Below are positions 43,978 through 64,000 of a stretch of 64,000 bases of DNA, in pieces. Position 1 is the first letter of the stretch. The number at the start of each line of letters is the position of its first letter. The DNA comes from Escherichia coli (GTDB taxonomy: Bacteria; Pseudomonadota; Gammaproteobacteria; Enterobacterales; Enterobacteriaceae): the NCBI RefSeq assembly GCF_051903065.1, contig NZ_CP178439.1, one strand, 5' to 3'. Under the pieces are notes generated by a model. That model was given only the letters and a program-made list of their open reading frames with translations, made no database searches and was not told the origin of the DNA. The position numbers and the translations under genes are program-made.

Positions 43978-44751
43978 TTAATTTTCTCCAAAAATTCGCT
44001 GTGAAATGGCATCTGCAAACTGACTCTGACGCGGGATGCCAAACCAGCTGCACAGTTTCATAAAACGATGATCGCTCAGGCTGTCGCCCAGGCCAATTAC
44101 GGGGAAGACTCCGCGTTCAGCCCGAAGTTTTTCAAGCAGCCATCTGACGGCCAGCCCTTTCTCAACCGGGGTGGGAAGCCAGGCCACGTTATTACTGTTG
44201 CGGTGGATGTAGAAGCCCTCGGTCGGAAACACCGTTTCTATCTCATCTGCAATGGCATTGAGCTCGTCAAGGCGGGTGCTGTCGCGGTGCTTCATCACCA
44301 TATAAACCGCCGTTTCACCGTATTCGAAGTTCAGCCTTGCCCAGGCATTGATCCCTTTTGCGTCCATCATTTCAGTGATCAGACGCTGCATCGATGTCAG
44401 CTTTTCCTGGTAGGGAGCCAGCTGGCCAAGCATATGGGCCTTCCACTCCTCGTCGGGTTTGCCTTCAGGCGTGAGAATGACGGCCCCGTGCGTGGTGATT
44501 GCCCAGGAGTGGAAAGGGATCCGGACGCGGCTGATTTCTTCAGTTCCCCGGGCGGTAACAGGTATGAGTTCAGCCTGCTCCAGGAGCCAGTCCACCAACA
44601 TGGACTGTTCTTCCGTCATAAAGCTTCGTGGATTCAGGGTGCGATCAACGGCACCGGTACGGAATGGCTCCAGGGCCAGCTCGTCCACCATTTTACGACG
44701 GGTCTGAAAGAGCGTGTCGTCAAGGTCGCTCAGAACAACGGGTTTATTCAT
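43978..44751 (-). CDS. HAD-superfamily hydrolase, Ter-linked biosynthesis module
   Basis: HAD motif I VVLSDLDDTLF; start set at ATG 44751 (MNKPVV); the track ORF's upstream extension overlaps the PRTase gene out of frame. Confidence 0.65.
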   Translation of the reverse strand: MNKPVVLSDLDDTLFQTRRKMVDELALEPFRTGAVDRTLNPRSFMTEEQSMLVDWLLEQAELIPVTARGTEEISRVRIPFHSWAITTHGAVILTPEGKPDEEWKAHMLGQLAPYQEKLTSMQRLITEMMDAKGINAWARLNFEYGETAVYMVMKHRDSTRLDELNAIADEIETVFPTEGFYIHRNSNNVAWLPTPVEKGLAVRWLLEKLRAERGVFPVIGLGDSLSDHRFMKLCSWFGIPRQSQFADAISQRIFGEN

Positions 44752-45892: not shown

Positions 45893-45895
45893 GCC

Positions 45896-46954
45896 TTAAT
45901 TCAGATGGTTAGAGAGTGATTCCGGGTAAACGATGACATCTGTGATGGATCTCACTGCAACCGGAGAAAAGGTATTTCTGGCGCTCTGGATCACCGCATC
46001 TTCAGACATCAGACCGAGCTTAAAGGCAGCAAACAACCCGGGAAGGTTCACCCCGCTGTGAAGGGTATAACCCACCCCGCCTGACGGACGCATGTTGGTT
46101 TCAAGCAGCACCGGGTTGCCATTCACATCGTTTCGCGTCTGAACATTCACCAGCCCGTCGGCCTTCATAACCCGGGCGCAGTCACAAGCCAGTTCCCAGG
46201 CGCTTCCTTCGTTTACCAGATACTGGATAGCCCCTTCCTTACGGCGTCCCACGGCTGCGAGTATTTCGCCCTTATCCGCGAGGATATCGACGGAAAATTC
46301 CGGGCCTGGCAGGTACGGCATCAAAACAAGGGGTTTAAACGACTCAGAAGCCGATGCTGCTGCAATATACTGTTGCGGACTGACCAGACGATGTTCGGGA
46401 TGATTAAAGACGGCCATGGGCGAAGCACTGTCATCAAAGCGCCAGAATCCCATGCCATAGATACCCGTCACCGGCTTCACGCATACCGGGCTGTCCGAGA
46501 ACGGCGGGGCCGCGAGGTGCGTCTTTAATTCTGCCAGCGTATTCACCCGCCAGGACGGTACGACCGGGAGCCCGTTTTGCTCCATAAACTGAGCAAAAGT
46601 AACTTTTTCGTCAGCCAGAGTTAACCAGTCGACGCCTGTTGCACCGGTAGTAAGGGTGGCTCCGGTCGATTCAATGGCTGAACGGTGTTCTTCAAACCAC
46701 TGGCTGTTACGGCCAGTATGAATATGGTGGATGCCGTAGGTCTGAATGGTTTCCTGAATAAACTGAAGACGTTTTTGAGGATCTTCAGGTTCAGTCAAAG
46801 AATAATCGGCAACGGAAAGAATTTCATGTCTTTCGTTACGGTGGGAGGCAAATACGGTAATAGCAAAATTATTTTTTTGTGCAAATGATTTTACCCCCTG
46901 AATAATATCTCGCTGGGAGGACAAACCTTCCATAAACCAAATTTTCTTGTTCAT
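45896..46954 (-). CDS. ATP-grasp enzyme, Ter-linked biosynthesis module
   Basis: 352-aa ORF, first gene of the minus-strand biosynthesis operon divergent from terZ; Gly-rich VCVKPVTGIYGMGF segment; call based mainly on position. Confidence 0.5.
   Translation of the reverse strand: MNKKIWFMEGLSSQRDIIQGVKSFAQKNNFAITVFASHRNERHEILSVADYSLTEPEDPQKRLQFIQETIQTYGIHHIHTGRNSQWFEEHRSAIESTGATLTTGATGVDWLTLADEKVTFAQFMEQNGLPVVPSWRVNTLAELKTHLAAPPFSDSPVCVKPVTGIYGMGFWRFDDSASPMAVFNHPEHRLVSPQQYIAAASASESFKPLVLMPYLPGPEFSVDILADKGEILAAVGRRKEGAIQYLVNEGSAWELACDCARVMKADGLVNVQTRNDVNGNPVLLETNMRPSGGVGYTLHSGVNLPGLFAAFKLGLMSEDAVIQSARNTFSPVAVRSITDVIVYPESLSNHLN
46596..46606. repeat. AAAGTWACTTT palindromic motif copy 9
   Basis: AAAGTAACTTT inside the minus-strand ATP-grasp gene (E-K-V-T-F on the coding strand). 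Confidence 0.6.
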
Positions 46955-46985
46955 TTTTTTTAATTATCCGGAACGCCATGCAAAT

Positions 46986-47036
46986 TTATGATTGAGAAGT
47001 GAGTCTATGAGTGTCTACGCTACATGTCAATCATAA
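46986..47036. promoter_or_regulatory. Inverted repeats in the divergent ter promoter region
   Basis: TTATGATTGA (46986-46995) and TCAATCATAA (47027-47036), 31-bp spacer, overlapping a second dyad ATCATAaTATGAT; lies between the biosynthesis operon and terZ. Confidence 0.4.
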
Positions 47037-47277
47037 TATGATTAATAACTTCAGTGGTTATGGAGTGCGTCAGTGTTTTTTTTAGTGCCTTATAACGTAT
47101 TGATATTTAAATTAAAAATAGAAAAATGAACACCATGAAAAGGATTTATTTTTGTGTTTTTGAAGAAAACTACCAAAATTTCCCTTGTCAGAGAACTTCA
47201 TCATGATATGATTTTCTTCGTCAGTTACTAAATATACCTTTGATTGTCTCGGTCATTACCATTTTAAGGAATAAAAC

Positions 47278-47859
47278 ATGGTTTCATTAGTTAAGAACCA
47301 GACGGTATCACTCAGCAAAGAATCATCTGCATTAAGCCAGCTTCATTTCGGTCTCGGTTGGGATCCGGTTAAGAAAAAAGGTCTTCTTGGAGGATTGTTT
47401 GGAGGCAACGACTCAATCGATCTCGATGCTGGCTGCGTATTAATGGACAGCACCGGTAAAACAATTGACACCATCTGGTTCCGCAAACTGGAATCCACCT
47501 GCGGCGCTGTTGTGCACAGTGGCGATAACCTGACCGGTGAGGGTGACGGTGACGATGAGGTGATTAAGGTCAACCTCTCCCGACTGCCTGCAAACGTTGA
47601 ATACCTGGCGTTTACGGTAAACAGCTTCCGTGGTCAGTCGTTCAATGACGTCGAAAACGCGTTCTGCCGCGTTGTCGATCAAACCGGCAAAGAGCTGGCT
47701 CGCTACAAGCTGACTGAGCAGGGCTCACATACCGGGATCGTTATTTCTTCGCTGCGCCGTAATAACGGCAACTGGGACTTTACCGCCCTTGGCCATGCCT
47801 GTCGCGGCCGCACAATTGACGATATGCACTCCGATATCGTTTCAGCGGTTATTCGCTAA
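47278..47859 (+). CDS. terZ: Tellurite resistance protein TerZ (TerD family)
   Basis: [13 protein letters not shown] signature; 193 aa; first gene of the terZABCDEF order. Confidence 0.85.
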   Translation: MVSLVKNQTVSLSKESSALSQLHFGLGWDPVKKKGLLGGLFGGNDSIDLDAGCVLMDSTGKTIDTIWFRKLESTCGAVVHSGDNLTGEGDGDDEVIKVNLSRLPANVEYLAFTVNSFRGQSFNDVENAFCRVVDQTGKELARYKLTEQGSHTGIVISSLRRNNGNWDFTALGHACRGRTIDDMHSDIVSAVIR

Positions 47860-49016
47860 TGAACCTGACGCCGGGGGGCAATGCCCCCGTTCCAGCCCAG
47901 GAGTTGCGGGTCCGGATCACCTCGGGCGGCCAGGTGGATGCTTCGGCGTTTCGCCTGTATGCCGACGGGAAGGTGCAGGGTGATGCGGACATGGTGTTTT
48001 ATGGTCAGCCACGTAACGATGATGGTACCGTCAGCCTGGTCAGTGAAGGCCAGTACTCAACCTTTACTGTCGCGCTCAACCGGCTGAAACCTGATGTCCA
48101 GAAAATTGCGTTCACCGTGACCTGTGACGGTGGGCAGACGGTGTCCGGTCTTCGTAATCTTTCCATCGACGTGGAGCAAGGGGCTACCGGCCTGGTTAGC
48201 GGCAGTGTCGAACTGAGCGGCCGTCAGGAAGCAGCCTTAATTCTGGGTGAATTTTACCGTCGTAATAATGACTGGAAATTCCGCTTCGTTGCGCAGGGGT
48301 TCAACGGTGGACTTAAACCGCTGGCAGAGCATTTCGGCGTAAATATTGCCGACGAACCGGCTCCCGCAGCCCCGACTCCTCCGGTTGTAACCCCTCCGCC
48401 AGTTGAGACAAAAATCAGCCTGAGCAAGGTATCGCTGACAAAAGAGAAGCCTGCAATCAGCCTGACCAAACGGGATAACTTCGGTGAAATCCGGATCAAC
48501 CTGAACTGGCACCGGGGCAGCGGCAAATCAGGCTTTGCAGGCATGTTCGGCTCCAAAGGAATCGACCTGGATCTGGGGGCCTTTGTTGAGCTTCAGGACG
48601 GGTATAAATCGGTCATTCAGGCGCTCGGTAATGCATTCGGTAATTATCGCGATGAACCGTATGTTCAGCTCAAGGGCGATGACCGGACGGGTGATGTATC
48701 AGACGGCGAGTGGCTGCATATCAATGGACGTGAATGGAAGCATATCCGCGAAGTGCTGATTTACGCCTTTATTTATGAAGGTGTTCCCAGCTGGGACAAG
48801 ACTGATGGTGTGGTCACCATTCATGTGCCGGATCAACCGCCCATTGAGACCCGCCTGACCGAAGGTGAAAACCGTCGCACATTGTGCGCCATTGCCAGAC
48901 TCGTAAACGAAAACGGCGCAATTAAAGTCGAGCGAATTAACCAGTACTTCAAAGGCCAGGACGAAATGGACCGGGCATTTGGCTGGGGATTTCGCTGGAG
49001 CGCCGGTTCTAAATAA
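47859..49016 (+). CDS. terA: Tellurite resistance protein TerA
   Basis: 385-aa TerD-family-like protein; start overlaps the terZ stop. Confidence 0.8.
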   Translation: MNLTPGGNAPVPAQELRVRITSGGQVDASAFRLYADGKVQGDADMVFYGQPRNDDGTVSLVSEGQYSTFTVALNRLKPDVQKIAFTVTCDGGQTVSGLRNLSIDVEQGATGLVSGSVELSGRQEAALILGEFYRRNNDWKFRFVAQGFNGGLKPLAEHFGVNIADEPAPAAPTPPVVTPPPVETKISLSKVSLTKEKPAISLTKRDNFGEIRINLNWHRGSGKSGFAGMFGSKGIDLDLGAFVELQDGYKSVIQALGNAFGNYRDEPYVQLKGDDRTGDVSDGEWLHINGREWKHIREVLIYAFIYEGVPSWDKTDGVVTIHVPDQPPIETRLTEGENRRTLCAIARLVNENGAIKVERINQYFKGQDEMDRAFGWGFRWSAGSK

Positions 49017-49038
49017 CACAGCAACAAAGGAAACAGGT

Positions 49039-49494
49039 ATGAGCTTTTTCGACAAGGTAAAAGGTGCCATTAACTCTGGCCGGGACGAACTGACCCGCCA
49101 GGTTGGTCGTTTCAAAAACAAAAAATTTATGCACGGCACCGTTGCTGTATGTGCCCGTATTGCCGTATCGAGTGACGGCGTGAGTTCGGAAGAAAAGCAG
49201 AAAATGATGGGCTTTCTTCGCTCTTCAGAAGAGCTGAAGGTCTTCGATACCAATGAGGTGATCGAGTTCTTCAATAAACTGGTTTCAAGCTTCGATTTCG
49301 ATGTTGAAATCGGCAAGGGCGAAACCATGAAATACATCCTGGCGCTGAAAGATCAGCCTGAGGCCGCTCAGCTGGCCTTACGTGTTGGTATTGCCGTTGC
49401 GAAAAGTGACGGTAACTTCGATCAGGACGAGAAACTGGCCTCCCGCGAGATCGCTATCGCGTTGGGCTTCGACCCGGCTGAATTTGGCCTCTGA
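49039..49494 (+). CDS. terB: Tellurite resistance protein TerB
   Basis: MSFFDKVKGAINSGRDE N-terminus; 151 aa; start set at ATG 49039 (the track's earlier start overlaps terA). Confidence 0.85.
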   Translation: MSFFDKVKGAINSGRDELTRQVGRFKNKKFMHGTVAVCARIAVSSDGVSSEEKQKMMGFLRSSEELKVFDTNEVIEFFNKLVSSFDFDVEIGKGETMKYILALKDQPEAAQLALRVGIAVAKSDGNFDQDEKLASREIAIALGFDPAEFGL

Positions 49495-49516
49495 TCCACA
49501 TCCCTAAGGGTAAAAT

Positions 49517-50557
49517 ATGGTTTCCACACACATCGGCTTCCCGACTGAAACGGTCATTGTTTTCATTGCGCTTTCAGTCGGTGCCATCTTTATTGACCTG
49601 TTTATGCACCGTGATGACAAGCCCATTTCCCTGAAGAGTGCGGCGCTCTGGTCCGTATTCTGGGTTGTGGTTGCGATGGCATTTGCCGGTTTCCTCTACA
49701 TCCACCACGGTGCTGAGGTTGCCAGCCTGTTTGTAACGGGTTATGCGCTGGAGAAAGTGCTGTCGGTCGACAACCTGTTTGTCATGATGGCCATCTTCTC
49801 CTGGTTCGCCGTTCCTGATCGTTACCGCCACCGTGTTCTCTACTGGGGGATCATTGGTGCCATCGTCTTCAGGGGCATCTTTGTCGCCATCGGTACGAGC
49901 CTGCTGAGTCTGGGGCCGTATGTTGAAGTTGTCTTCGCTATCATCGTCGCCTGGACGGCGGTCATGATGCTTAAAAGCGGTGATGACGATGATGAAATTG
50001 AGGATTATTCCCAGCATCTGGCTTACCGCATGGTTAAACGCTTCTTCCCTATCTGGCCGAAGCTCAGAGGTCATGCTTTCCTGCTTAACCAGAAGGAAGT
50101 GGATGCCGAACTGGCGAAACCAGAAAACAGCGATGTCACCATTGGCCGTGGTAAAAAGGCGGCGCTGTATGCGACCCCTCTGTTCCTGTGTGTGGCCGTG
50201 GTTGAACTCTCGGATGTTATGTTTGCGTTTGACTCGGTACCGGCAATCATTGCCGTCAGTCGTGAACCGCTTATCGTCTATAGTGCCATGATGTTTGCTA
50301 TCCTGGGCCTGCGTACTCTGTACTTTGTCCTTGAAGCACTGAAACAGTACCTGGTTCATCTGGAGAAGGCCGTTATCGTGCTGCTGTTCTTCATCGCGGC
50401 AAAACTGGGCCTGAATGCGACCGATCACATTTGGCATCATGGTTACAGCATCGCGGCGACAACCAGCCTGTATGTTGTACTGGGTGTTTTGGCGCTGGGC
50501 ATTCTCGCAAGCGTCATGTTCCCGGGCAAACCTGAATCTGAGGAAAAGGGGAGCTGA
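49517..50557 (+). CDS. terC: Tellurite resistance integral membrane protein TerC
   Basis: 346-aa polytopic membrane protein with many hydrophobic segments, in the canonical position. Confidence 0.85.
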   Translation: MVSTHIGFPTETVIVFIALSVGAIFIDLFMHRDDKPISLKSAALWSVFWVVVAMAFAGFLYIHHGAEVASLFVTGYALEKVLSVDNLFVMMAIFSWFAVPDRYRHRVLYWGIIGAIVFRGIFVAIGTSLLSLGPYVEVVFAIIVAWTAVMMLKSGDDDDEIEDYSQHLAYRMVKRFFPIWPKLRGHAFLLNQKEVDAELAKPENSDVTIGRGKKAALYATPLFLCVAVVELSDVMFAFDSVPAIIAVSREPLIVYSAMMFAILGLRTLYFVLEALKQYLVHLEKAVIVLLFFIAAKLGLNATDHIWHHGYSIAATTSLYVVLGVLALGILASVMFPGKPESEEKGS

Positions 50558-50605
50558 TCCCCTGAAGTGTTAACCTGAACAATTACTAATCGAAGAGGTT
50601 ATTTT

Positions 50606-51184
50606 ATGAGTGTTTCTCTTTCCAAAGGCGGGAACGTCTCCCTGAGTAAAGCAGCTCCGTCAATGAAAAACGTCCTGGTGGGCCTTGGCTGGGATGCGCG
50701 TTCAACAGACGGTCAGGACTTTGACCTGGATGCTTCAGCATTCCTGCTGGCCGCAAATGGCAAAGTGCGCGGCGATTCAGATTTCATCTTCTATAACAAC
50801 CTGACGTCATCTGACGGTTCCGTAACCCATACCGGTGATAACCGTACCGGTGAAGGTGATGGTGATGATGAATCGCTGAAAATTAAACTGGACGCCGTCC
50901 CGTCTGATGTTGACAAGATCATCTTCGTTGTCACTATCCATGATGCTCAGGCTCGTCGCCAGAGCTTTGGTCAGGTATCCGGTGCGTTTATTCGCCTGGT
51001 CAATGACGATAACCAGACTGAAGTCGCTCGCTACGATCTGACCGAAGATGCGTCCACTGAGACTGCCATGCTGTTCGGCGAGCTGTATCGCCACAATGGT
51101 GAGTGGAAATTCCGCGCAGTGGGCCAGGGTTATGCTGGTGGTCTGGCATCTGTATGTGCTCAGTACGGCATTAACGCGTCCTGA
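50606..51184 (+). CDS. terD: Tellurite resistance protein TerD
   Basis: [13 protein letters not shown] signature; 192 aa. Confidence 0.9.
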
Positions 51185-51188
51185 TCGA

Positions 51189-51199
51189 AAAGTAACTTT
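51189..51199. repeat. AAAGTWACTTT palindromic motif copy 10
   Basis: GAAAAGTAACTTTTC (15-bp palindrome) in the terD-terE intergenic region. Confidence 0.6.
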
Positions 51200-51251
51200 T
51201 CACCCGGGGCTGTTAATGCAGCCCTCATTCAACTGTTTGCAGGAGCTAAAA

Positions 51252-51827
51252 ATGGCAGTTTCTCTCGTAAAAGGCGGCAACGTATCTCTGACCAAAGAAG
51301 CACCAACCATGAATATCGCTATGGTTGGCCTCGGCTGGGATGCCCGTGTAACTGACGGTCAGGCTTTTGACCTGGACGCTTCCGTGTTCGCAGTAGGCGA
51401 AGACGGTAAAGTGCTGTCAGATGCGCATTTCATTTTCTTCAATAACAAAACCAGCCCTGATGGCGCGGTAGAGCACCAGGGCGACAACCGTACCGGTGAA
51501 GGCGACGGTGACGATGAGCAGGTCAAAATCGATCTGACCAAAGTCTCAGCAGATATCAAAAAACTGGTGTTTGCCGTTACCATCTATGATGCAGAAGCGC
51601 GTAAACAAAACTTCGGCATGGTGAGCAACAGCTTCATGCGCGTTTACAACAACGACAACGGCACGGAAATTGCCCGTTTCGATCTGTCTGAAGATGCCTC
51701 AACCGAAACCGCTATGGTCTTCGGTGAACTGTATCGTCATGGCGCTGAGTGGAAGTTTAAAGCTGTCGGTCAGGGCTTTGCCGGTGGCCTGGCGGCTCTT
51801 GCCTCCCAGCACGGCGTTAACATCTAA
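51252..51827 (+). CDS. terE: Tellurite resistance protein TerE
   Basis: [13 protein letters not shown] signature; start at ATG 51252 with AGGAGC upstream (the track ORF begins upstream in the intergenic region); 191 aa. Confidence 0.9.
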
Positions 51828-51844
51828 AACAACGCTGAATCATA

Positions 51845-51869
51845 CCCCGGCAATGCCGGGGTTTTTTTT
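51845..51869 (+). terminator. Rho-independent terminator after terE
   Basis: CCCCGG-caatg-CCGGGG followed by T8. Confidence 0.75.
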
Positions 51870-52255
51870 GGTTGCGATCCGCTTTCAGGAGGGAGTAGTA
51901 GAAAGGGGACTGGAAATTTCAGAAAGCAGGTCATGTTAATTCAGACCTGAGCCTTTTAAAGGCAGGAAACGGATTTATCTCTGGTTGCTGGTTAAAGCCG
52001 GTATTCCGTGCCTTTTATCAACAGAATGCCCCTCTGATATATGTTACTTTTGCGGTTTATGAAGGAACGGGATCTGGAACATAAGATACCCGGTCAATCA
52101 AAATTCCAGTTCAACAGGTATAGAAACTTCAGCGTGATGAAATATGGTGTCACACCATATATACGCCTCACCAGAAATCCAGCGTCCTGAACTAAGCCTG
52201 GGGAACATATATAAGCGCTGCGCTTTAAAAATAATCAAAAATCAGGAGAGTTAAT

Positions 52256-53497
52256 GTGAATCTACAATCCGGACAAAACATACCGCTTCAGCAATCTGCG
52301 ATCAGGCTGAATCTTCAGTACCCTGCCAAATCCGGCTTTAAAGGCGAACCCGATACCTGCCTCTTCCTGCTTAATGCTCAGGGAAAGGTAACCGGCGATT
52401 CTGACTTTATCTTTTATAATAATCTGTCTTCTCCTGAAGGGGCAGTAAAGCTCGTTACCGGTTCTCAGCAGTCCAGCATTGAGATAGCACTGGATCGTGT
52501 TCCGGCGAACGTCAGTAAGATTGCGATCACCGTTGTCATTGATGGTGAAGATACTATCAGTGGGCTCAGTTTATTGAGCATTCAGGCTCCTGGTATCGCT
52601 GATTTTCAGGCTGAGACTCAGGGCCGCAGTGAGAAAGCAATCATCCTGGGTGAAGTATATCGGCACAATGGCGCCTGGAAGCTTCGTGCGCTCGGGCAGG
52701 GTTTCAACGGTGGTCTTGAGCCTCTGGCCATTAGCTTTGGCGTTGATGTCGCACAGCCAGCTCCGCAGCCAGCAAAGCCTGCTCGTATCAGTCTGGAAAA
52801 GAAACTTGAAACCAGATCTCCGCGCCTCGTAAGCCTCGCTAAAAAAGCCTCGGTCAGTCTCACTAAAAATAAACTGGACACCCTTGAGGCAGCGGTTGCA
52901 TTTGTACTTGACGCATCCGGCTCAATGAGTGGCCAGTTCAGTAAGGGCAACGTTCAGTCTGTGCTGGACCGCATCGCCGTTCTTGCCGCCCAGTTCGACG
53001 ACGACGGTGAAATGGATGTCTGGGGATTTGGAGAGAAGCACAAGAAGTATCCAAACGTCACACTGGACAACCTGGACACATATATTCAGTCCATTCGCGG
53101 GTCTGGAAAGCGTTCAGCCTGGGAGAACCTGCCGGGACTTGGTGGGACAAACAATGAGCCCCCTGTGATGGAAGAAATTGTCGACTACTTTAAGGACTCG
53201 AAAATCCCGGTATATGTTGTATTTATTACCGATGGCGGGATCAGCAAGACCCGGGCGATTAAAGATGCAATCCGGCGTTCTGCCAACTACCCCATCTTCT
53301 GGAAGTTTGTCGGCCTGGGTGGTTCAAGCTACGGTATCCTCAAAAATCTGGATGACTTTACTGACCGCCGGGTTGATAACACCCACTTCTTTGCCATGGA
53401 TGATTTCGGTTCGATCAGCGATGAAAAGTTATATGATAATTTACTGGAAGAATTCAGACCGTGGATCGATGAAACAAAAAGGTTAGGCATCCTGTAA
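52256..53497 (+). CDS. terF: TerF (TerD-like N-terminal domain plus C-terminal vWA-like domain)
   Basis: GTG start; N-terminal TerD-like region ([10 protein letters not shown]); C-terminal [11 protein letters not shown] and FITDGG vWA motifs; 413 aa. Confidence 0.75.
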
Positions 53498-53524
53498 TAC
53501 GCACAGTTTTCGCATGGTTAAAGG

Positions 53525-53560
53525 AGCTCTACAGCAGCTTAATACTGTAGAGCCTTTGTT
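53525..53560 (+). terminator. Hairpin terminator after terF
   Basis: GCTCTACAG-cagcttaata-CTGTAGAGC followed by CTTTGTT. Confidence 0.5.
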
Positions 53561-54059
53561 CACTGGAAATCGTACAGGGAGGAGCATATGGACCGCATCA
53601 AGTACCTGAAATGGATAGCTGAAGAATCACCAACTGATGATGAAATCGACAACTACGATAGTATCATTAGTCGGGGCGCAGAAAGGGCCGAGAAGGTTCA
53701 GTTGTCTTTAAGACGTTAATATACGGGAGTTTAAATGTTCGCAGAAATCAAAGATAATTATTCGTTAGGTGGATAAAGAAAGGTTGCCATTACCAGCTTT
53801 CGACGAGTCGAAAATAAAAACCTTATTTATAGTGACAGGGAGTATGAGCTGACGCTTGCCAATGGAACAATAATTAAAAATGTACTTAGAAAAGAAGAGT
53901 GGGAACTGTTAGAAAGCAATTCAATTAAGGTTATATTATAACGAAAATATATTTACAGTTTTGGATAGGTTTCAAACGAGTCCGGACATTTGTACCTGAA
54001 GTATCTGACATTACAGTTAAGTGACGATTATGCCAGCACGTCTGTTGCTGGCAGCTTAG

Positions 54060-54341
54060 CTATCGGTCTAAAAGCTGATCCATTAATAATTCTTCGTAAA
54101 GCCCAGAGGTATCGGGCTTTATTACAATATCCGTTATTTCGAAGCGTTCAAGTACAAATTGCAGATATTCCGGAGTAACGTAGTAGGGATCAGGTTCAGC
54201 CAGATTAGTATAGAGTGGGTCTTCTGCTGCATTAATGTCATAATCAATGCACATATGAAACCACTGCAAAGGTGGATCCCAGCCTAACATCACCTGAACA
54301 ATTCCCTGATTGCTTTTCACCTCATACCAGTGCTGGCTCAT
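54060..54341 (-). CDS. Small hypothetical protein (93 aa)
   Basis: ORF convergent with the ter operon; no recognised motif. Confidence 0.4.
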   Translation of the reverse strand: MSQHWYEVKSNQGIVQVMLGWDPPLQWFHMCIDYDINAAEDPLYTNLAEPDPYYVTPEYLQFVLERFEITDIVIKPDTSGLYEELLMDQLLDR

Positions 54342-54390
54342 ACTTAGTCCTTAAGAAAATTTGTCATCGGAAAATAACACGAAGCCTGCA

Positions 54391-54582
54391 TCATCGAGGC
54401 GCATAACCTTCTTCCCTTAACGCCTGTTGTAATTTATCAACTGCGCTTTTCATTACCCAGGCTTCTTCGTCACTCACAGCACAACCACGTAGATCGCTCC
54501 AGCTCAGACGTTTAACAAATTGAGCAAGGGCCATAGTTTCGTTCTCATCAAGCCGCAAACTCAGTGTCTCAATACCTTCCAC
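54391..54582 (-). CDS. Small hypothetical protein (63 aa)
   Basis: Immediately upstream of the 93-aa ORF on the same strand; possible two-gene module. Confidence 0.35.
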   Translation of the reverse strand: MEGIETLSLRLDENETMALAQFVKRLSWSDLRGCAVSDEEAWVMKSAVDKLQQALREEGYAPR

Positions 54583-54805
54583 TATCTAACCTCCCTTATA
54601 ATGAAAAATGGCGCTTTACTTCTGACCAGATGCCGAAGCCTTGAATGCAGCCGGAACTGTCGTTGTTTCTACTTTACAGAAATGGAATTAAAAAGTGGTG
54701 ATGCTGTCAGCGCCAGTGATATAAGACGGTAATTCGCCATTTGGATTGTCCGCTCCACCCAACATGTTGTTTCCTTAAGGTTCTCACACCAGAAAGGACA
54801 TCAAC

Positions 54806-56775
<1,970 letters not shown>

Positions 56776-56813
56776 CGAAAGTATTTAGCGGGCATGAAAA
56801 TGGCAAATAACGG

Positions 56814-57179
56814 TCAAACATCGTGGCGTTGACAATGCTGGGCACGTTTCTTTTCCAGCCGGGGTTTAAGCCAGAGCTGAAACTCATTCAACTTCTCAGC
56901 AGCCAAAACCGCTTCAACGGGGAAAACTTTATATTTACCCTGTTGCTGAGGTTCACCCAGCCATCGCCTGATGGCTCCGTCAGTCCATAAACGAGTCTCT
57001 TTTAGCCTAGTTACAGTGACCCATTTTCTGGACCATTCATCAAATTGTCGCTGGCGATCCCGATAACGTTGTTCTTCCTGCTGCCGAAGCCACTCGCGAT
57101 CAACAGCAAATTTTCGGTATCCAACAAAGAGCCCTTGTACTTTGGCCATGTCATATTCCGGTTGCTTAGAGTTACTCAT
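56814..57179 (-). CDS. Hypothetical protein, C-terminus altered by the IS21-like insertion
   Basis: The last 21 nt including the stop codon lie inside the IS right end; without the IS the ORF would end ..KRAQHHHFLIPFL. Confidence 0.5.
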   Translation of the reverse strand: MSNSKQPEYDMAKVQGLFVGYRKFAVDREWLRQQEEQRYRDRQRQFDEWSRKWVTVTRLKETRLWTDGAIRRWLGEPQQQGKYKVFPVEAVLAAEKLNEFQLWLKPRLEKKRAQHCQRHDV

Positions 57180-57482
57180 TCAACCAAAACCTAAACGTCG
57201 ATACAAACTCTGTTTCATAACCAGGGTTTTATCCTTACCGCGACAGTAAGTAACAGGGGCTGCATAAACCGGTCATTTAGTCCGTTATGCAAAAATTATT
57301 GAGGATCCGGGCTGTTAAACTGTTCTTCCTCTTTCGCTTCCGGTGAAAAGGGGAGGTGTCACCCTGCGAGCCCGTGTAGTGAAAGGGATTCGTCGTAATA
57401 CAGGCCAAAGGCTAACATGACCGCAAAGGACGCCCGGGCGACCGGATACCTGCCGGGTTGTGCGATGTAAAATCCGGAAGCA

Positions 57483-57914
57483 GTGATAACACAAACAGGC
57501 CCCTACAGCGTAAGGATTGTGATGGACGATAAAGAGCAGTTTACGAATCTTGTGGCAAAGCATGCCTCCGGACTCACCGAAGAGCAGCTGGCCGGGTACG
57601 ATGCCTGTTCCCTGGATGGTGAATGCGTCACGCCTTCATACGAGGTTTTCCGGGGGTATCGTACCCGCCACACACTGGATGAATTTCTGGAGATGGCCAT
57701 ATCGCTGAATGCCATCCACCCGGATGAATATTTAACGGATATGCTGCTGAAGCCTCATGAGGTGATCGGCGCTCTGGCCGATGAAGGCGACCAGCTGAAC
57801 AACGCCACCCCGGTTTATTTCTTTCCGGATACCGGCGTCTATGCAGCGGCCGTTAGTGAAACCCGGGTGCTCGATGCCTGGCTTTGCTGGCCATGCTACC
57901 CGGCGAACTGGTAA
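57483..57914 (+). CDS. Hypothetical protein (143 aa)
   Basis: ORF with ATG start; no recognised motif. Confidence 0.45.
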   Translation: MITQTGPYSVRIVMDDKEQFTNLVAKHASGLTEEQLAGYDACSLDGECVTPSYEVFRGYRTRHTLDEFLEMAISLNAIHPDEYLTDMLLKPHEVIGALADEGDQLNNATPVYFFPDTGVYAAAVSETRVLDAWLCWPCYPANW

Positions 57915-57982
57915 CGCGGCCGTTGGAATTGCACCGGCCGGATACGAATTTAACCGACCCCGTGGCGGGAAGGCTATCAGAG

Positions 57983-58235
57983 TTGCATGTCCTCATCCCT
58001 CAAGCCCCCTGCCAGGCCCCAACGTGCTGTCAGGCTTCGCCTGATTCCCGATCTGCGCCGATACTTCAGCCGATAACTTTTTGTTTTCTTTTTATTTTCT
58101 TCCCATTTCCTCAAAAATCGCGGGCGGCGTGGACAGGGCACCATTGCCGCATGTGGGGTCTTAATAAGGGCAGGGTGGTCAGTTTTGCTCGATGCCAGGG
58201 GTAGGCCCTCCCCTTCATGGGATGAGGACATGCAA
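57983..58235. repeat. Non-coding element of about 253 bp bounded by 17-bp perfect inverted repeats
   Basis: TTGCATGTCCTCATCCC (57983-57999) and GGGATGAGGACATGCAA (58219-58235); interior is GC-rich with T-rich stretches and no credible ORF. Confidence 0.5.
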
Positions 58236-58386
58236 GTAAGCTAACTATCTGAAATGACGAAGGTTCATTTGGTGAATGTCGCTTCATATTAATGTTGTGT
58301 CACTTATGATCGTATGTAGCTGGTTGCAAAGAGGAGCGATGAGACAATAAAGTTGTATCGCTAACAAGATTTATGCTGCCACATAG

Positions 58387-58490
58387 TAACAGCCTAAAAG
58401 TTGTACGCCCTATTTAACAGCTTTTAGGCTGTTAATTTGATATTACAGCTTTTAGGGTGTATGTTTAGGAAACAGCCTGCAAGGTGTATC
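58387..58490. promoter_or_regulatory. Four imperfect palindromic repeats (ACAGC-N6-GSTGT) upstream of hipB, candidate operators
   Basis: AACAGCCTAAAAG, AACAGCTTTTAGGCTGTT, TACAGCTTTTAGGGTGTA, AACAGCCTGCAAGGTGTA within 100 bp ending 25 bp before the hipB start. Confidence 0.5.
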
Positions 58491-58514
58491 AGAGGAAACT
58501 ACTGAGGCCAGCTT

Positions 58515-58811
58515 ATGATCAATAATGATTACCCGTTAAACACGCTCAACCAGCTGCGTCCCTTGCTCATTGGTTTTCGCAAGGCGAATGGCCTGACGCA
58601 AAAAGACCTGTCCGAAAGGTTAGGCGTCACTCAACAGACATACTCACGTCTGGAAGCCAACCCTGCCAGTGCGAGCATTGAACGGCTATTCAAGGTGTTT
58701 TCCATCCTGGGCGTAAAAATCAGCTTCTCCTCGGCAACCACCTCTTCAGAGAGGAAGCAGACGGAAGAAATGCTTAAATCAAACTCACCTGCACGACAGG
58801 AGGATTGGTAA
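58515..58811 (+). CDS. hipB: HipB-like XRE-family helix-turn-helix antitoxin
   Basis: Helix-turn-helix segment GLTQKDLSERLGVTQQTYSRLE; 98 aa; stop 4 nt before the hipA start. Confidence 0.8.
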   Translation: MINNDYPLNTLNQLRPLLIGFRKANGLTQKDLSERLGVTQQTYSRLEANPASASIERLFKVFSILGVKISFSSATTSSERKQTEEMLKSNSPARQEDW

Positions 58812-58815
58812 CGAT

Positions 58816-60141
58816 ATGAGCCGGAAACAGCAACGTCTGGTAATTTGGATGAACGGCATCAAAGTCGGGTACTGGGAAAAAAGCAAAGGGGTAGACAGCT
58901 TAGAATACCTTCCTGAATGGGTTGCTGACGAACAGGGAAGGCCGCTGTCATTGTCCCTTCCTTTTACTCCCGGGAACCAGGTCTGGCGTGGAAATGTGGT
59001 ACGTGACTATTTTGATAATTTACTGCCGGACAGCGAAGGCATACGCAGACGTCTGGCAATGCGTTACAAGGCCGATAGCCTGGAGCCTTTTGATCTGCTG
59101 ACGGAGCTGGGAAAAGACTGCGTGGGCGCGATACAGCTGCTTCATGACGGAGATGAACCCACTGATTTATATTCCGTGAAGTATCACCCGCTTACTGAAT
59201 CAGAAATTGCGGCAACTTTGCGTAATACCACGGAGACATTGCTACCGGGCAGGCCAGAAGATAACGACGACTTACGTTTATCTATTGCCGGTGCTCAGGA
59301 GAAAACAGCCCTACTGTGGCATGAAGATCGGTGGTGTATGCCGGAGGGTAATACACCAACGACGCATATATTCAAGCTACCGCTCGGACTTGTGGGGAAC
59401 ATGAAAGCCGACATGAGCTCGTCGGTTGAAAATGAATGGCTCTGCTCGGTACTTCTCGGCCAGTACGGGCTCCCCGTGGCAAGAACGCAGATTGCTCACT
59501 TTGAAGATCAGAAAGCGCTGGTGGTAGAACGTTTTGACCGAAAATGGTCAGGAGACGGACAATGGATCATTCGTTTACCCCAGGAGGATATGTGTCAGGC
59601 CCTGGGCGTTTCGCCATTACGAAAATATCAGGCGGACGGCGGGCCAGGTATATCGGAAATTATGGAGGTTCTGAGTAATTCAGACCGTGCTGAGCGTGAC
59701 AAAGCGCAGTTTTTTATGACGCAGATAATTTTCTGGATGATGGCCGCAACAGATGGCCACGCTAAAAATTTCAGTATTTCTATTGGGCCACAGGGACGTT
59801 ATCACCTTACACCAAACTATGATGTGTTGTCGGCATGGCCGGTGATCGGTCATGGGAACAATCAGATATCCTGGCAGAAGTGCAAACTGGCGATGGCCGT
59901 ACGTGGCAGTAGCAACTATTACCAGATATATCGAATACAACGACGCCACTGGATCAGGCATGGTGAGATAACCGGCCTGAGTAAACAGCAGACAGAGGCG
60001 ATGATAGAGGAAATCATCGCCAGAACCCCGGGTGTCATTGAACGTGTTAGCGGGCTTCTTCCGGACCAGTTCCCCCAGCAGCTTGCGGAAAGTATTTTTG
60101 ATGGAATGAGGCAGCAATGCAGGCGCCTGGCTGAGAAATGA
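58816..60141 (+). CDS. hipA: HipA-family Ser/Thr kinase toxin
   Basis: 441 aa; conserved HipA blocks (FFDNLLPDS, SIAGAQEKTALL, ERFDR, ATDGHAKNFS) matching E. coli HipA along its length. Confidence 0.9.
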   Translation: MSRKQQRLVIWMNGIKVGYWEKSKGVDSLEYLPEWVADEQGRPLSLSLPFTPGNQVWRGNVVRDYFDNLLPDSEGIRRRLAMRYKADSLEPFDLLTELGKDCVGAIQLLHDGDEPTDLYSVKYHPLTESEIAATLRNTTETLLPGRPEDNDDLRLSIAGAQEKTALLWHEDRWCMPEGNTPTTHIFKLPLGLVGNMKADMSSSVENEWLCSVLLGQYGLPVARTQIAHFEDQKALVVERFDRKWSGDGQWIIRLPQEDMCQALGVSPLRKYQADGGPGISEIMEVLSNSDRAERDKAQFFMTQIIFWMMAATDGHAKNFSISIGPQGRYHLTPNYDVLSAWPVIGHGNNQISWQKCKLAMAVRGSSNYYQIYRIQRRHWIRHGEITGLSKQQTEAMIEEIIARTPGVIERVSGLLPDQFPQQLAESIFDGMRQQCRRLAEK

Positions 60142-60201
60142 CAGCCGCAATTTATAGTGTGCATGTTTTCAGAATAGCTGATGTAAGCGTGAGGATTCAG
60201 T

Positions 60202-60408
60202 ATGACTGAAGAACAAAAAAGAATAGAGCGGGCTATTGAGTTGGCTTGTCGTTACGGCGGAACCGATGAAATGCATCATCTGCAATGGGTCGTGGATCAG
60301 ATGGTAAGAGAACTTGCTGGAGAACGTTATGCACAGATTGTAGCTGATGCCACCAGCGGAGAAGATGGGCCTGATACTTACAAATGGAGTGTTGGGATCG
60401 CGCCTTAA
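60202..60408 (+). CDS. Small hypothetical protein (68 aa)
   Basis: Short ORF with ATG start downstream of hipA. Confidence 0.35.
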   Translation: MTEEQKRIERAIELACRYGGTDEMHHLQWVVDQMVRELAGERYAQIVADATSGEDGPDTYKWSVGIAP

Positions 60409-60509
60409 CAGCTGTCGGTCTGGGGGTGAAAACGTATTCTTCATTCAGCGAATTCCCAGGCTTCACATTAAGACTAAAGCGGCGGCCGCAGTAACGTAAG
60501 AGAAAATAA

Positions 60510-60920
60510 ATGGCTATTTTAGCAATCATTGCAGTTATCGCCCTGGGTGGGTACGCCTACGGATTTATTAAAACCCGTGAGCTGAGCGCTTTGCGTAAAG
60601 AAATGAAACTATACGTGGATCGCATGGAAGCGGCGGAGCTGGACTTACACGCAATCAGAAGTGTAGCGGAGCACCGGTTGCACGGTGCAGGTAAACAGTT
60701 TGCCGACCTTTACAGCCGTATCGACGGTGCAACTGTGACGCTGACACCCGAAGATCAGCTGTTACTGGCAACGATGCCATTTAATATTCAGGATGTAGAA
60801 GACATCGTAAACGAGCGCGGTCCAAAGACAATTAGCGGCCGTCCATTCTGGGAAGTTGAGCCAGGCCCGCATGATTATGAATATGGCCCGCAATATCCGT
60901 ATTTCCCAGACCAGCGCTAG
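60510..60920 (+). CDS. Hypothetical protein with N-terminal transmembrane anchor
   Basis: N-terminus MAILAIIAVIALGGYAYGFI; 136 aa; ends 12 nt before the HNH gene. Confidence 0.5.
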   Translation: MAILAIIAVIALGGYAYGFIKTRELSALRKEMKLYVDRMEAAELDLHAIRSVAEHRLHGAGKQFADLYSRIDGATVTLTPEDQLLLATMPFNIQDVEDIVNERGPKTISGRPFWEVEPGPHDYEYGPQYPYFPDQR

Positions 60921-60932
60921 GAAGAGATCAAG

Positions 60933-61748
60933 ATGAGAGAGCCAAGACCACGCCATACCTTGCAGGTCATTCGTGTACCTTCTCTGGAGGTTCAGGACCT
61001 GGGGCTGACCAGCTTTGATAGCTGGCTTGACGAGCACGGGTATGACAAAACGAATGCCAGAAATAACCGTACCATCTGGGCGAGAGAAGGCGGATGGCAT
61101 CTGAAACGTTGCAGAAATCTTGAAACTGGCACGGACGATTTCTGGTTTATCGCTTTCGATGGTAAAGGCGGGAAGATTTACCCGCTGAAAACCCAAAGAG
61201 ACTACCGGGCTGCATATCGTAAGCTGGAAGCAGAAGGTTATGCGCCTGCGGTCATCGAGCAAATGACCACAGGCGCAGCATATAACCTGGCCTATCCACG
61301 TTCCACCCTAAAACAAGCTGAGACGGCCACCAGCGAGCCAATTCGGAAACCTGACGTAGATATCCAGGGTGAGCACTGCGAGCGCGTAGTGACGCAACGT
61401 AGTGGCGTGGCACAGGGTAAATTCAAAGCTCTGCTCATCGAGAATTTCGCAGGCCGTTGTGCGGTAACCGGTTGGGTTAATGGAGGTGTCCTGGATGCGG
61501 CACACATTGAACATGGAACCCGGTACAATCCGTCTAATGGCATCCTGATGACTCCAACAATGCATGCGCTGTTTGATGCCGATCTTATGGGCATAGATCC
61601 GGCCACCCTGACCGTTCATTTTAAGCCAGGCATTGAGGTGGGCGAGCTGTTTGAAGGCCGTAAAATCACACCGCTGGTGTACGATCTGGACTTAGAGCGG
61701 CTGGCCGTACGCTGGGCAGAATACCAGGGCCTTGCTCAGGACCAATGA
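60933..61748 (+). CDS. HNH endonuclease-domain protein (HNH_2-like)
   Basis: C-terminal CAVTGW..LDAAHIEH..SNGILMTPTMHALFDADLMGI matches the HNH nuclease signature; 271 aa. Confidence 0.65.
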   Translation: MREPRPRHTLQVIRVPSLEVQDLGLTSFDSWLDEHGYDKTNARNNRTIWAREGGWHLKRCRNLETGTDDFWFIAFDGKGGKIYPLKTQRDYRAAYRKLEAEGYAPAVIEQMTTGAAYNLAYPRSTLKQAETATSEPIRKPDVDIQGEHCERVVTQRSGVAQGKFKALLIENFAGRCAVTGWVNGGVLDAAHIEHGTRYNPSNGILMTPTMHALFDADLMGIDPATLTVHFKPGIEVGELFEGRKITPLVYDLDLERLAVRWAEYQGLAQDQ

Positions 61749-62001
61749 AGGGTGACAGCCAGGTTGTGCCTAAACCTGGCAGTAAAACCTGCATGCCACA
61801 AACCTTTAAATTCTGACTCAAGAGCCTGGCACAAGATAAAAGCGAAATGAAAAGGTTAAAACCGGTGCACCAGACCTCTTAGGTTTAATACCTGAGCCAG
61901 TATACTGGCAGTCTCAGGTAAGTGGGTATCATACACTTCAGAAATATCCACACCGAGATAACCGCAACAGTTAAAGAGCTAAAAAGGACGGTTTTAATTT
62001 T

Positions 62002-62427
62002 ATGAATAAAACAGCTTTAATTATGATTCTGGGAATCCTCGGATGTGGTAAAGCATTTGCAGCCACTGAATTACAGCTCCAGCAAAAACGCGTTATGCAT
62101 TTCTGTGCCAATGCCAGCCTTCCGTTGTTGATTGCCGGTACAACTTATGCGAATACGTCTGACAATGGACGACCAGAAAAAGAAAGAGTGGCAATCCTGA
62201 AAAATTCAGTTGCAAGCTCGACAGCTTATAAAATGGCATCTCCCGGAGTTCAGATGGCCATGATGAGCGTGGTGGAAGATATTGCCGATCCGAAAGAATT
62301 AGCTCTACATCAAAAAGAAGTTAGACGTCTTGGGGCTAGTTATCTTTCCGACAGCGGTGTTTCATGGGCTTCAAAAACTGTTTCACCATTTACAGCCTGG
62401 TGTAACTTTAACCGTTTAGAAAGTTAA
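62002..62427 (+). CDS. Putative secreted protein or lipoprotein
   Basis: Signal peptide MNKTALIMILGILGCGKAFAA; 141 aa. Confidence 0.5.
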   Translation: MNKTALIMILGILGCGKAFAATELQLQQKRVMHFCANASLPLLIAGTTYANTSDNGRPEKERVAILKNSVASSTAYKMASPGVQMAMMSVVEDIADPKELALHQKEVRRLGASYLSDSGVSWASKTVSPFTAWCNFNRLES

Positions 62428-62453
62428 GGCTGGCAAGGCGGTTTCTGTTCAGG

Positions 62454-62464
62454 AAAGTTACTTT
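62454..62464. repeat. AAAGTWACTTT palindromic motif copy 11
   Basis: GGAAAGTTACTTTCC (15-bp palindrome), intergenic; a related inverted pair GTAACTTT..AAAGTTA lies at 62402-62427. Confidence 0.6.
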
Positions 62465-62975
62465 CCGTGCGGGGACCGTAAGATACAGATAAAGCTTAAG
62501 GCCTTTGAATTTTTGGAAAGCATTTGAAAATTTCATTGCGCTTGTCTGATATGAAACAGCCCCTGCATTTCTGCAAAGGCTGAAAGAGTGTGTACGGACT
62601 TTGGAAGGAGTGATGATATACGCCTGAGCCATCCCATCACCGCAGACAGGGTAATTAACCCTGACTAAAGCTTTCACCTATTCCGTCGCTCGCAAGCGGC
62701 TTTCGCACACTAACGAAGGTATGGCCTTTCGTCGGTGTTAAATTTTTCAAACTTTGCTTACTTTGTCAAGGAAGGTGACCGCAGTAGCAGGCACAACTAC
62801 TTTAATCTGTATGAATAATAAGGTAGAACCGGCCAGTGAATGAATGCTTACCCTGAAATCAGGCGGACAACCTTCAGGAATATTGATAGCAAGACTGAAT
62901 CTCTCGCTGCGGCGATAAACATTTCGCCATAACCCTGAACGAGAGTGGTTCATCCATCATATACAGGAGCGTTAC

Positions 62976-63284
62976 ATGCGCAAATTTAAGTACATAATCT
63001 GTCACCAGTGCGAAGGCCACGGGACCATGGAAAACCCGGCCTTTGAAAATGGATTCACCCAATCAGAAATGGCTGAGTGGGAGCCAGAAATGCGTGAAAA
63101 GTATTTTGCCGGAGCATTTGATGTTCGCTGTAACGTTTGTGCCGGTGACGGTAAGCTCAGCGTACCAAACGTAGCGGCTATGTCTTTTTCAGAACGACGG
63201 GTTCTGGCAGCACGGCGGCGTGATGAGCGTCTTCAGGCTGCTGATGAACGGCTGTCCCGCCAGGAACGAGCAATGGGGTACTGA
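62976..63284 (+). CDS. Small zinc-finger protein (CxxCxGxG repeats)
   Basis: CHQCEGHG and CNVCAGDG DnaJ-type zinc-finger motifs; 102 aa; directly upstream of the second HNH gene. Confidence 0.5.
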   Translation: MRKFKYIICHQCEGHGTMENPAFENGFTQSEMAEWEPEMREKYFAGAFDVRCNVCAGDGKLSVPNVAAMSFSERRVLAARRRDERLQAADERLSRQERAMGY

Positions 63285-63299
63285 GGTGCTACAGCAAAG

Positions 63300-64000
63300 A
63301 TGAAAATGACGAAGCCAAAACCGGTAAGCCGGATGAAAAGACCGTTTATTAGTGAGCTTGCAGAGCTGGGTTTATCGGGTGAAATTCTTTCAATTCGAAC
63401 TGACGGCATGCAGGGGACGCTCATACCCGATCTTACCGCAGGGGTGAGTGAAGCAGGCCGTGTGAAAACCGGCAACTGGGTAATCTCTGACAAGAGAACC
63501 TTCGACCATGTCGTTCTGTGTGTTGAAAGACAAGATGAGAACCATGATGTGTACGTAGGTAAATTCATCCAGTTACATGTAGCCGCTAATAAGAGCCTTA
63601 AGATCGTCGAAATGGGCGATGTGAAACTGGTGGCCATAACCAGCTCGATTCCTACCACTTTTAATGGTGGGATAAAGAGATACAAAGGGGTTACGTATGT
63701 GTCACTTTCCCAAACAGCTCAAACCACTATCGACTTCCCGAAGCGTATCTACAAAGAGGGCCAGGAATGTACTTCTGTCACCAGTCCTGACCAAGGTCCT
63801 TTCGCCCGGGATGTTAGGTTGAATTGCTACGGGCGATGTGTTGTCACCGGCGTAAGGTCCCCCTGGCGTACTGAGGCCGCGCACTTAACGCCACGTCATG
63901 AAGAAGGCATTCCCGACGTAACGAACGGAATTTTACTTCGCCGTGATATCCATACACTGTTCGACAATGACCATTGCGCCATAAACCCTGACACTATGAA
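63300..64000 (+). CDS. HNH endonuclease-domain protein, paralog-like (3' end outside window)
   Basis: Open frame from ATG 63300 to the window end, absent from the ORF track; contains CVVTGV..EAAHL..TNGILLRRDIHTLFDNDH, similar to the C-terminus of the 60933-61748 protein. Confidence 0.6.
   Translation, partial: MKMTKPKPVSRMKRPFISELAELGLSGEILSIRTDGMQGTLIPDLTAGVSEAGRVKTGNWVISDKRTFDHVVLCVERQDENHDVYVGKFIQLHVAANKSLKIVEMGDVKLVAITSSIPTTFNGGIKRYKGVTYVSLSQTAQTTIDFPKRIYKEGQECTSVTSPDQGPFARDVRLNCYGRCVVTGVRSPWRTEAAHLTPRHEEGIPDVTNGILLRRDIHTLFDNDHCAINPDTM

Follow-up and report, generated by a model that had tools for sequence, protein, structure and literature searches.

The 64-kb window (the whole stretch of DNA that was analysed) contains a hipBA module which, judged by its genes and their surroundings, belongs to the IncHI2 plasmid backbone and is a type II toxin-antitoxin operon of the canonical two-gene form. 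Four palindromes with TACAG half-sites lie upstream of hipB. These repeats are almost certainly HipB binding sites on the sequence evidence, and we consider it very probable that the operon is autoregulated by HipB at these four promoter-covering operators. We regard hipBA with TACAG operators as a well-supported new instance of a known regulatory scheme and not as a new kind of system.

The hipBA genes and their plasmid setting

A sequence-only reading of this DNA had called the two gene products homologs of the E. coli persistence module. The open reading frames were exactly as proposed (Table 1), and database comparisons bore the homology out. The top PDB matches of the plasmid HipB were E. 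coli HipB chains (E 1.4e-6), while the plasmid HipA matched, over its own full length, all the E. coli K-12 HipA chains (E ~1e-100) and the Shewanella HipA chains much more weakly (E 2.8e-21). Pfam assigned HTH_3 to HipB (55.9 bits) and two domains to HipA, both well over their cut-offs (PF07804 HipA_C, 174 bits; PF13657 Couple_hipA, 76 bits); HipA also matched TIGR03071 with 93.5 bits. In a global alignment the plasmid and K-12 HipA proteins are 41% identical. The catalytic residues, whose loss would argue against the identification, are all present: Ser150, Lys181, Asp309, Asn314 and Asp332 in E. coli numbering are identical in the plasmid protein, as S156, K187, D313, N318 and D336. We take Asp309 to be the catalytic residue, Asn314 and Asp332 to be Mg-binding and Ser150, of the Gly-rich loop, to be autophosphorylated. 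In the pairwise alignment Lys157 and His311 (E. coli numbering) are likewise identical, and the hipA7/high-persistence and dimer-interface positions Gly22, Pro86, Asp88 and Asp291 are kept.

The plasmid module shares with K-12 hipBA (b1507/b1508) the hipB-hipA order, the tight coupling of the genes, the two HipA Pfam domains and the catalytic and P-loop residues. The K-12 genes overlap by 1 nt, whereas on the plasmid the hipB stop codon TAA (58809-58811) is followed by a gap of 4 nt before the hipA start, and the Shine-Dalgarno sequence of hipA, AGGAGGA, lies within the 3' end of hipB. That of hipB is GAGG at 58504-58507. The RefSeq annotation places the hipB start later (58518-58811, 97 aa) and names the pair 'helix-turn-helix transcriptional regulator' and 'type II toxin-antitoxin system HipA family toxin'.

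The plasmid HipB, like that of K-12, belongs to the XRE HTH proteins and has Trp as its last residue. Its sequence ends in ...ARQEDW, and the terminal Trp and the p.k.E.W motif are kept family-wide and in E. coli (...QNLEW). The HipB C-terminal tail has been reported to dock into HipA (PMC8262856). Against the K-12 HipB equivalog model NCBIfam NF007271 the plasmid protein scored 41.5 bits, below the cut-off of 79; by this measure it is a member of a HipB-like subfamily and not a K-12 equivalog, so the K-12 mechanism may not carry over in every detail.

A 2-kb segment with the module is widespread. Identical (100%) copies are found in many plasmid records (at least 25), and the segment is present at 99% identity or more in 689 records and at 95% or more in about 1,180. 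Its hosts include Escherichia, Salmonella, Enterobacter, Klebsiella and Citrobacter, and the carriers are mostly large conjugative plasmids; among complete E. coli genomes it was present in 285 of 5,426, nearly always plasmid-borne. The retrieved records with the module are IncHI2A/MOBH plasmids, e.g. pSTM6-275 and pSG17-135-HI2, in which hipBA follows the tellurite-resistance cluster. Plasmids of the IncHI2 group are major vehicles for mcr-1, mcr-9, ESBL and heavy-metal resistance genes. The module is already known at the level of annotation, and IncHI2 papers count hipA and hipB from annotation as backbone 'stability' genes (PMC4855149, PMC6617520). We found no experiments on the IncHI2/R478 hipBA (binding, expression or toxicity) in the literature searched, and no paper describing a TACAG/CTGTA-type HipB operator.

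The palindrome array upstream of hipB

Table 1. Features of the hipBA region, in window coordinates.
Feature	Position	Strand	Sequence	Description and basis
Operator 1	58388..58405	+	AACAGCCTAAAAGTTGTA	Pattern match; aligned to the first of the phased sites in related loci
Operator 2	58416..58433	+	AACAGCTTTTAGGCTGTT	Pattern match, 12-species alignment
Putative -35	58437..58442	+	TTGATA	Promoter scan
Operator 3	58444..58461	+	TACAGCTTTTAGGGTGTA	Pattern match, promoter scan, alignment; overlaps the first -10 bases
Putative -10	58460..58465	+	TATGTT	Promoter scan
Operator 4	58471..58488	+	AACAGCCTGCAAGGTGTA	Pattern match, 12-species alignment; over the expected transcription start
hipB	58515..58811	+		98-aa XRE/HTH antitoxin-repressor; ORF list, Pfam, PDB match
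hipA	58816..60141	+		441-aa HipA-family Ser/Thr kinase toxin; ORF list, Pfam, PDB match

The sequence-only reading had described four palindromes of the form ACAGC-N6-GSTGT in 100 bp. The four clustered sites stood, but GSTGT fits sites 2 to 4 only, since site 1 reads GTTGT. Written as ACAGC-N6-GNTGT, the 16-bp matches lie at 58389-58404, 58417-58432, 58445-58460 and 58472-58487, and the array spans 58389-58487. No further match to this pattern was found in the 64 kb, where about 0.5 is expected per whole window. In 1000 Markov-simulated 64-kb sequences there was never more than one match per 100 bp, and the Poisson probability of at least four matches in a given 100 bp is ~4e-15.

In 18-bp form the plasmid sites read (T/A)ACAG-N8-(C/G/T)TGT(A/T). 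Their centres are 28, 28 and 27 bp apart, which leaves gaps of 10, 10 and 9 bp between them. Operator 1 is the most distal and the weakest, with an imperfect right half (TTGT). Operator 2 has perfectly matched ACAGC/GCTGT arms, and the palindrome can be extended to TTAACAGC/GCTGTTAA; pFORC19 and at least 11 other plasmids carry a duplication of this operator and its spacer (28 bp), giving five-operator variants.

Four operators also precede K-12 hipBA, as the sequence-only reading had pointed out, and the likeness extends to their geometry. Read from the K-12 sequence, O1-O4 are 18 bp long with gaps of 10, 21 and 10 bp (centres 28/39/28 bp apart), in agreement with Wen et al. 2014 (PMC4150777). 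Both systems have four 18-bp palindromes of 5-N8-5 form over the promoter with neighbours 28 bp apart. The half-site differs (TACAG vs TATCC), and the spacing is uniform on the plasmid, at 28/28/27, vs 28/39/28 in K-12. That the plasmid repeats depart from TATCC-N8-GGATA, as the same reading had stated, was confirmed, with no match to this pattern at up to 2 mismatches in 58300-58514. Because the 5-N8-5 geometry is the same, what had been termed a non-canonical sequence is a half-site change in an otherwise canonical architecture.

The HipAB system of Shewanella oneidensis MR-1 (SO0705/SO0706) provides a precedent for a HipB orthologue with a palindrome unlike that of E. coli in four evenly spaced copies upstream of the operon. 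There HipB binds GTGTA-N6-TACAC, present in four copies 34 bp apart, and the assembly of HipAB on DNA is quite different from that in E. coli (PMC4150777). In contrast to the plasmid array, the Shewanella sites have N6 between the half-sites, a 34-bp interval and one operator inside hipB, and their sequence and orientation differ from those of the plasmid operators. The GTGTA-N6-TACAC pattern (34-bp intervals) was absent from the four-site array and, at up to 2 mismatches, occurred only at chance level in the window; the only such match in the region before hipB, with 2 mismatches at 58484-58499, overlaps the edge of operator 4 and was rejected as an artefact. Both foreign patterns, the E. coli type and the Shewanella type, were at chance frequency across the window.

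A relaxed search of the window for TACAG-type sites (up to 1 mismatch) gave 36 matches vs ~21 expected. Those outside the array were scattered, and this search of the 64-kb window gave no sign of a plasmid HipB regulon. Two adjacent relaxed matches, at 3344 and 3361, would fall within the conjugal-transfer gene trhN if the window is collinear there with pSG17-135-HI2, a collinearity established for 44000-64000 only. A candidate fifth half-site, AAGTTGTATC at 58350-58359, was rejected: it lies 48 bp from operator 1 and is therefore out of phase, has no left half and is not part of the block that is conserved between IncHI2 lineages. Rfam gave no match in 56500-61000, and the composition profile showed no anomaly apart from the A/T-rich promoter.

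The putative promoter hexamers of hipBA form a sigma-70-like TTGATA-17-TATGTT element with 9/12 consensus matches. It is the sole such match in the intergenic region near hipB, at a level that is near chance in the region (5 found vs 2.8 expected). A -35-like hexamer (e.g. TTGCAT) occupies the equivalent place relative to operator 3 in several Enterobacterales relatives, and the positional counterpart of TATGTT in relatives is TATTGT. In the predicted layout operator 2 abuts the -35, operator 3 fills the spacer and operator 4 lies just downstream of the -10; from the promoter geometry, transcription would be expected to start ~6-8 nt past the -10, under operator 4.

Conservation of the operators and the HipB recognition helix

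One genome per species was scanned for relatives of the module, which gave 80 loci with HipA proteins 59-81% identical. The sample includes Enterobacterales (Citrobacter, Brenneria, Rahnella, Pantoea, Morganella, Hafnia, Yersinia and others) and Betaproteobacteria (Paraburkholderia, Caballeronia, Gallionella, Rhodocyclales and others). A hipB homologue lies directly upstream of hipA in 79 of the 80 related loci. Locus L073, which holds only the 3' part of hipA and is cut at the locus edge, was left out; the 80 usable upstream regions are the 79 related loci plus the identical plasmid copy (L001).

The upstream regions are otherwise unalignable, yet the same element is visible in them. When the 250 bp before hipB were scanned for ACAG-N8-CTGT with up to 1 mismatch, we found 245 sites in 22 kb (11 per kb) vs 114 in 457 kb (0.25 per kb) elsewhere in the loci, a 44-fold upstream enrichment. 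Of the 80 loci, 75 carry at least two sites; most have three (36 loci) or four (26 loci), and Yersinia thracica has six operators. A spacing of 27 bp was counted 145 times, one of 28 bp 12 times and one of 54-55 bp 9 times, and in the last class the intervening site is more degenerate. Loci with 0-1 sites mostly have a misplaced hipB start or a cut contig; one has ACAA/TTGT half-sites. From the position frequencies the family consensus is tTTACAG-cyTATAGg-CTGTAt, that is, an 18-bp TACAG-N8-CTGTA, with a pattern of its own conserved in the central 8 bp (c-y-T-A-T-A-G-g). The core of this consensus is inflated by the selection criterion, and the phasing of the sites is independent evidence.

In a promoter alignment of 12 Enterobacterales species the ACA and TGT of each of the four operators account for the invariant columns, whereas the operator centres, the spacers and the leader vary. 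Among IncHI2 lineages homology starts ~23 bp before operator 1, and substitutions within the array fall in the central N6 or between operators. The sole half-site change among these lineages, in pESC17ND16, turns the right half of operator 1 from GTTGT into GCTGT, towards the consensus. This conservation pattern and the shared start of homology are as expected for protein-binding operators that travel with hipBA. The comparison with hipBA loci of related plasmids that the sequence-only reading had called for, here widened to chromosomal loci, spoke for the operators, with phased sites before hipB in most loci and half-sites kept among the IncHI2 lineages.

The recognition helix of the plasmid HipB is TQQTYSRLEANP (TQQTYS). 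In the family helix, TQQ.YA.lEANP, most positions reach 90% conservation or more, and its E. coli counterpart is KQATISNFENNP (KQATIS). Over the longer HTH the family reads LTQ..(5)..LG.TQQ.YA.LEANP and E. coli reads WTQ..IGIKQATISNFENNP. The helix difference, TQQxYA vs KQATIS, plausibly explains the half-site change, TACAG vs TATCC. By eye we saw no consistent pattern of covariation between the fourth half-site base (G/A) and the HipB residue after TQQ. The array and the helix are conserved together over ~80 species, and the TACAG specificity appears to belong to a broad chromosomal and plasmid subfamily and not to be peculiar to the plasmid. The earlier suggestion of a distinct HipB specificity on this plasmid is supported by the difference from E. 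coli in helix and half-site, but that specificity is shared by a wide subfamily.

The chromosomal relatives (L002-L081) resemble the plasmid module in operator consensus, 27-28-bp phasing, HipB recognition helix and C-terminal motif. They differ from it in lying on chromosomes or other replicons and in an operator number that varies, mostly 3-4, and many of the betaproteobacterial HipB proteins are longer than that of the plasmid. On these shared sequence traits the loci, of the Citrobacter-to-Gallionella type, are the true family of the plasmid module. To our knowledge none of them has been studied experimentally.

Proposed autoregulation by HipB and alternative readings

In the reading that we favour, HipB, an XRE-type HTH dimer, would both neutralise HipA and repress its own operon, with HipB dimers occupying the four operators and the promoter occluded as a result. 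As in the structure of E. coli HipB on DNA, the two recognition helices of each dimer would enter successive major grooves at a distance of 13 bp, and the dimer would read TACAG in place of TATCC through a TQQxYA helix rather than KQATIS. HipA is probably a co-repressor, and since the E. coli interface residues are conserved, complexes on adjacent operators may also sequester it through HipA-HipA dimers formed between them. E. coli HipB binds its four operators cooperatively, with HipA as co-repressor and a 70 degree bend in the DNA (PMC3920265), and when HipA dimerises within the higher-order complex on DNA its active sites become blocked (PMC7758455). Since unit geometry, neighbour spacing and interface residues are all conserved, we infer that these findings likely hold for the plasmid module as well. 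As a HipA-type kinase, the plasmid toxin would be expected to arrest growth by phosphorylating GltX or another aminoacyl-tRNA synthetase, and the role of the module on the plasmid may be maintenance (post-segregational growth arrest) and/or persistence.

A more elaborate form of autoregulation, which we think rather improbable, takes the periodic 27-28-bp array, with its 3-6 operators and duplication of whole units, as a scaffold for a HipA2B2 filament that sequesters HipA. HipA2B2 complexes on every neighbouring pair of operators would dimerise via the conserved Gly22/Pro86/Asp88 interface. If this were true, operator number would set the threshold at which free HipA escapes, making a tunable switch for persistence and plasmid addiction, and the TACAG specificity would insulate the module from a resident chromosomal hipBA of the K-12 type.

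Other readings dispute where HipB binds, or whether it is HipB that the repeats serve. A strictly periodic palindrome array holds two registers, and its A/T-rich inter-site spacers are of constant length, so HipB might use everted CTGTA-N9/10-TACAG sites across neighbouring operators, or only some of the sites might be functional. We judge this quite unlikely: read inward, the half-site centres stand 13 bp from each other, the very distance found in the E. coli operator with its homologous dimer (PMC3920265), whereas the everted register would put them at 14-15 bp and leave an unpaired half-site at either end of every array. The conserved central 8-bp pattern is, moreover, what would be expected of a bent operator centre. 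That the repeats adjoin hipBA by chance and serve something else, as iterons, a partition site or the target of a regulator from host or plasmid, seems extremely unlikely. The plasmid encodes many uncharacterised proteins, and regular spacing does resemble iterons, but chromosomal loci from dozens of unrelated genera have the array at a constant distance before hipB although their flanks cannot otherwise be aligned, the point at which IncHI2 homology begins indicates that it travels with hipBA, and the motif is not beyond chance elsewhere in the 64-kb window.

We find it scarcely credible that the palindromes are nucleic-acid structures, such as an insulating terminator or leader hairpins, and not protein sites. 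A terminator scan did flag 58414-58435, and operator 2 folds at -9.9 kcal/mol (z -5.3); the other three sites, however, fold at ~-4 kcal/mol, within the shuffle range, the U-tract is poor and the predicted transcription start comes only after sites 1-3. Conservation, too, falls on the outer ACA/TGT and not on stem strength, the stem-proximal G/C positions being variable. There is likewise a very small chance that the module is a domesticated or attenuated remnant, in which HipB is kept as a repressor and HipA is no effective toxin in current hosts. HipB variants shortened to 86-87 aa in one protein cluster would fit such decay. Yet more than 1100 plasmid records carry both open reading frames intact at 95% identity or more, HipA lacks none of its catalytic residues, and the family, with intact operators, is conserved over two proteobacterial classes.

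Autoregulation by HipB at TACAG operators would alter nothing fundamental in the current view of hipBA function. The hipBA pair of IncHI2 plasmids is routinely listed as a stability determinant, and its operators, now defined, are a reagent for testing autoregulation. The operator difference explains why no transcriptional cross-talk need arise between the IncHI2 hipBA and the chromosomal E. coli hipBA with its TATCC sites. The plasmid and K-12 HTH/operator systems are, in addition, a natural homologous pair in which to map how a few recognition-helix changes re-target a Cro-like repressor.

Boundary and flanks of the hipBA module

All similarity between the window and the plasmids pR47-309 and pESC17ND16, which represent two other IncHI2 lineages, is lost upstream of approximately position 58366. 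This break point lies 23 bp before operator 1, the first of the putative HipB sites, and marks the left boundary of the conserved hipBA unit.

Flanking features of hipBA in the window
Feature	Coordinates	Domain match
IS21-family ORF	55975-56775	Full IstB_IS21 domain, 302 bits
143-aa ORF upstream of the operator array	57483-57914	
HNH_2 endonuclease-domain ORF, 271 aa, downstream of hipA	60933-61748	HNH_2, 30.6 bits

Because the matching IncHI2A plasmid pSG17-135-HI2 has an IS21-family istA annotated at the position of the first ORF, while the interval from the ter region to hipB in pSTM6-275 is free of IS elements, this ORF is an IS21-family insertion carried by only some IncHI2 plasmids. In the approximately 470 bp between the 143-aa ORF and operator 1 (57915-58387) there is neither a supported gene nor a match to Rfam; the interval starts G+C-rich and is A/T-rich in its promoter-proximal part. 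Between hipA and the HNH_2 ORF, a Pfam search with the small ORFs at 60202-60408 and 60510-60920 gave no match.

Start codon of hipB

RefSeq places the hipB CDS at 58518-58811 (97 aa, N-terminus MNNDYPL), which implies an ATC start codon. An in-frame ATG is located at 58515, 3 bases upstream of this start, with GAGG 7 nt before it. The ATG appears to be the likelier start of hipB.

Operator-like sites and operator number

Two sites resembling the TACAG-type operators, ACAGAAATACACCTGT and ACAGAGGTAAGGATGT, occur at 3344-3376. By the coordinates of pSG17-135-HI2, for which collinearity with the window was demonstrated for 44000-64000 only, the pair falls inside the conjugal-transfer gene trhN. 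Since its 17-bp spacing does not fit the operator array, the pair is probably due to chance.

In plasmid pFORC19 (NZ_CP012397.1; positions 417-472 of comparison locus L083), operator 2 and its spacer are present as an exact 28-bp tandem duplication. The promoter therefore has five operators, with the extra unit inserted after window positions 58416-58443. pFORC19 is of replicon type IncFIB/IncFII/IncQ1, not IncHI2. At least 12 records of Salmonella and E. coli plasmids share this 101-bp five-operator sequence at 100% identity, so the duplication is a real polymorphism and not a single assembly error.

The Yersinia thracica locus (L019:2000-2200) has six phased operators with a period of 27 bp, the largest array among the loci compared. 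The number of operators clearly varies within the hipBA family.
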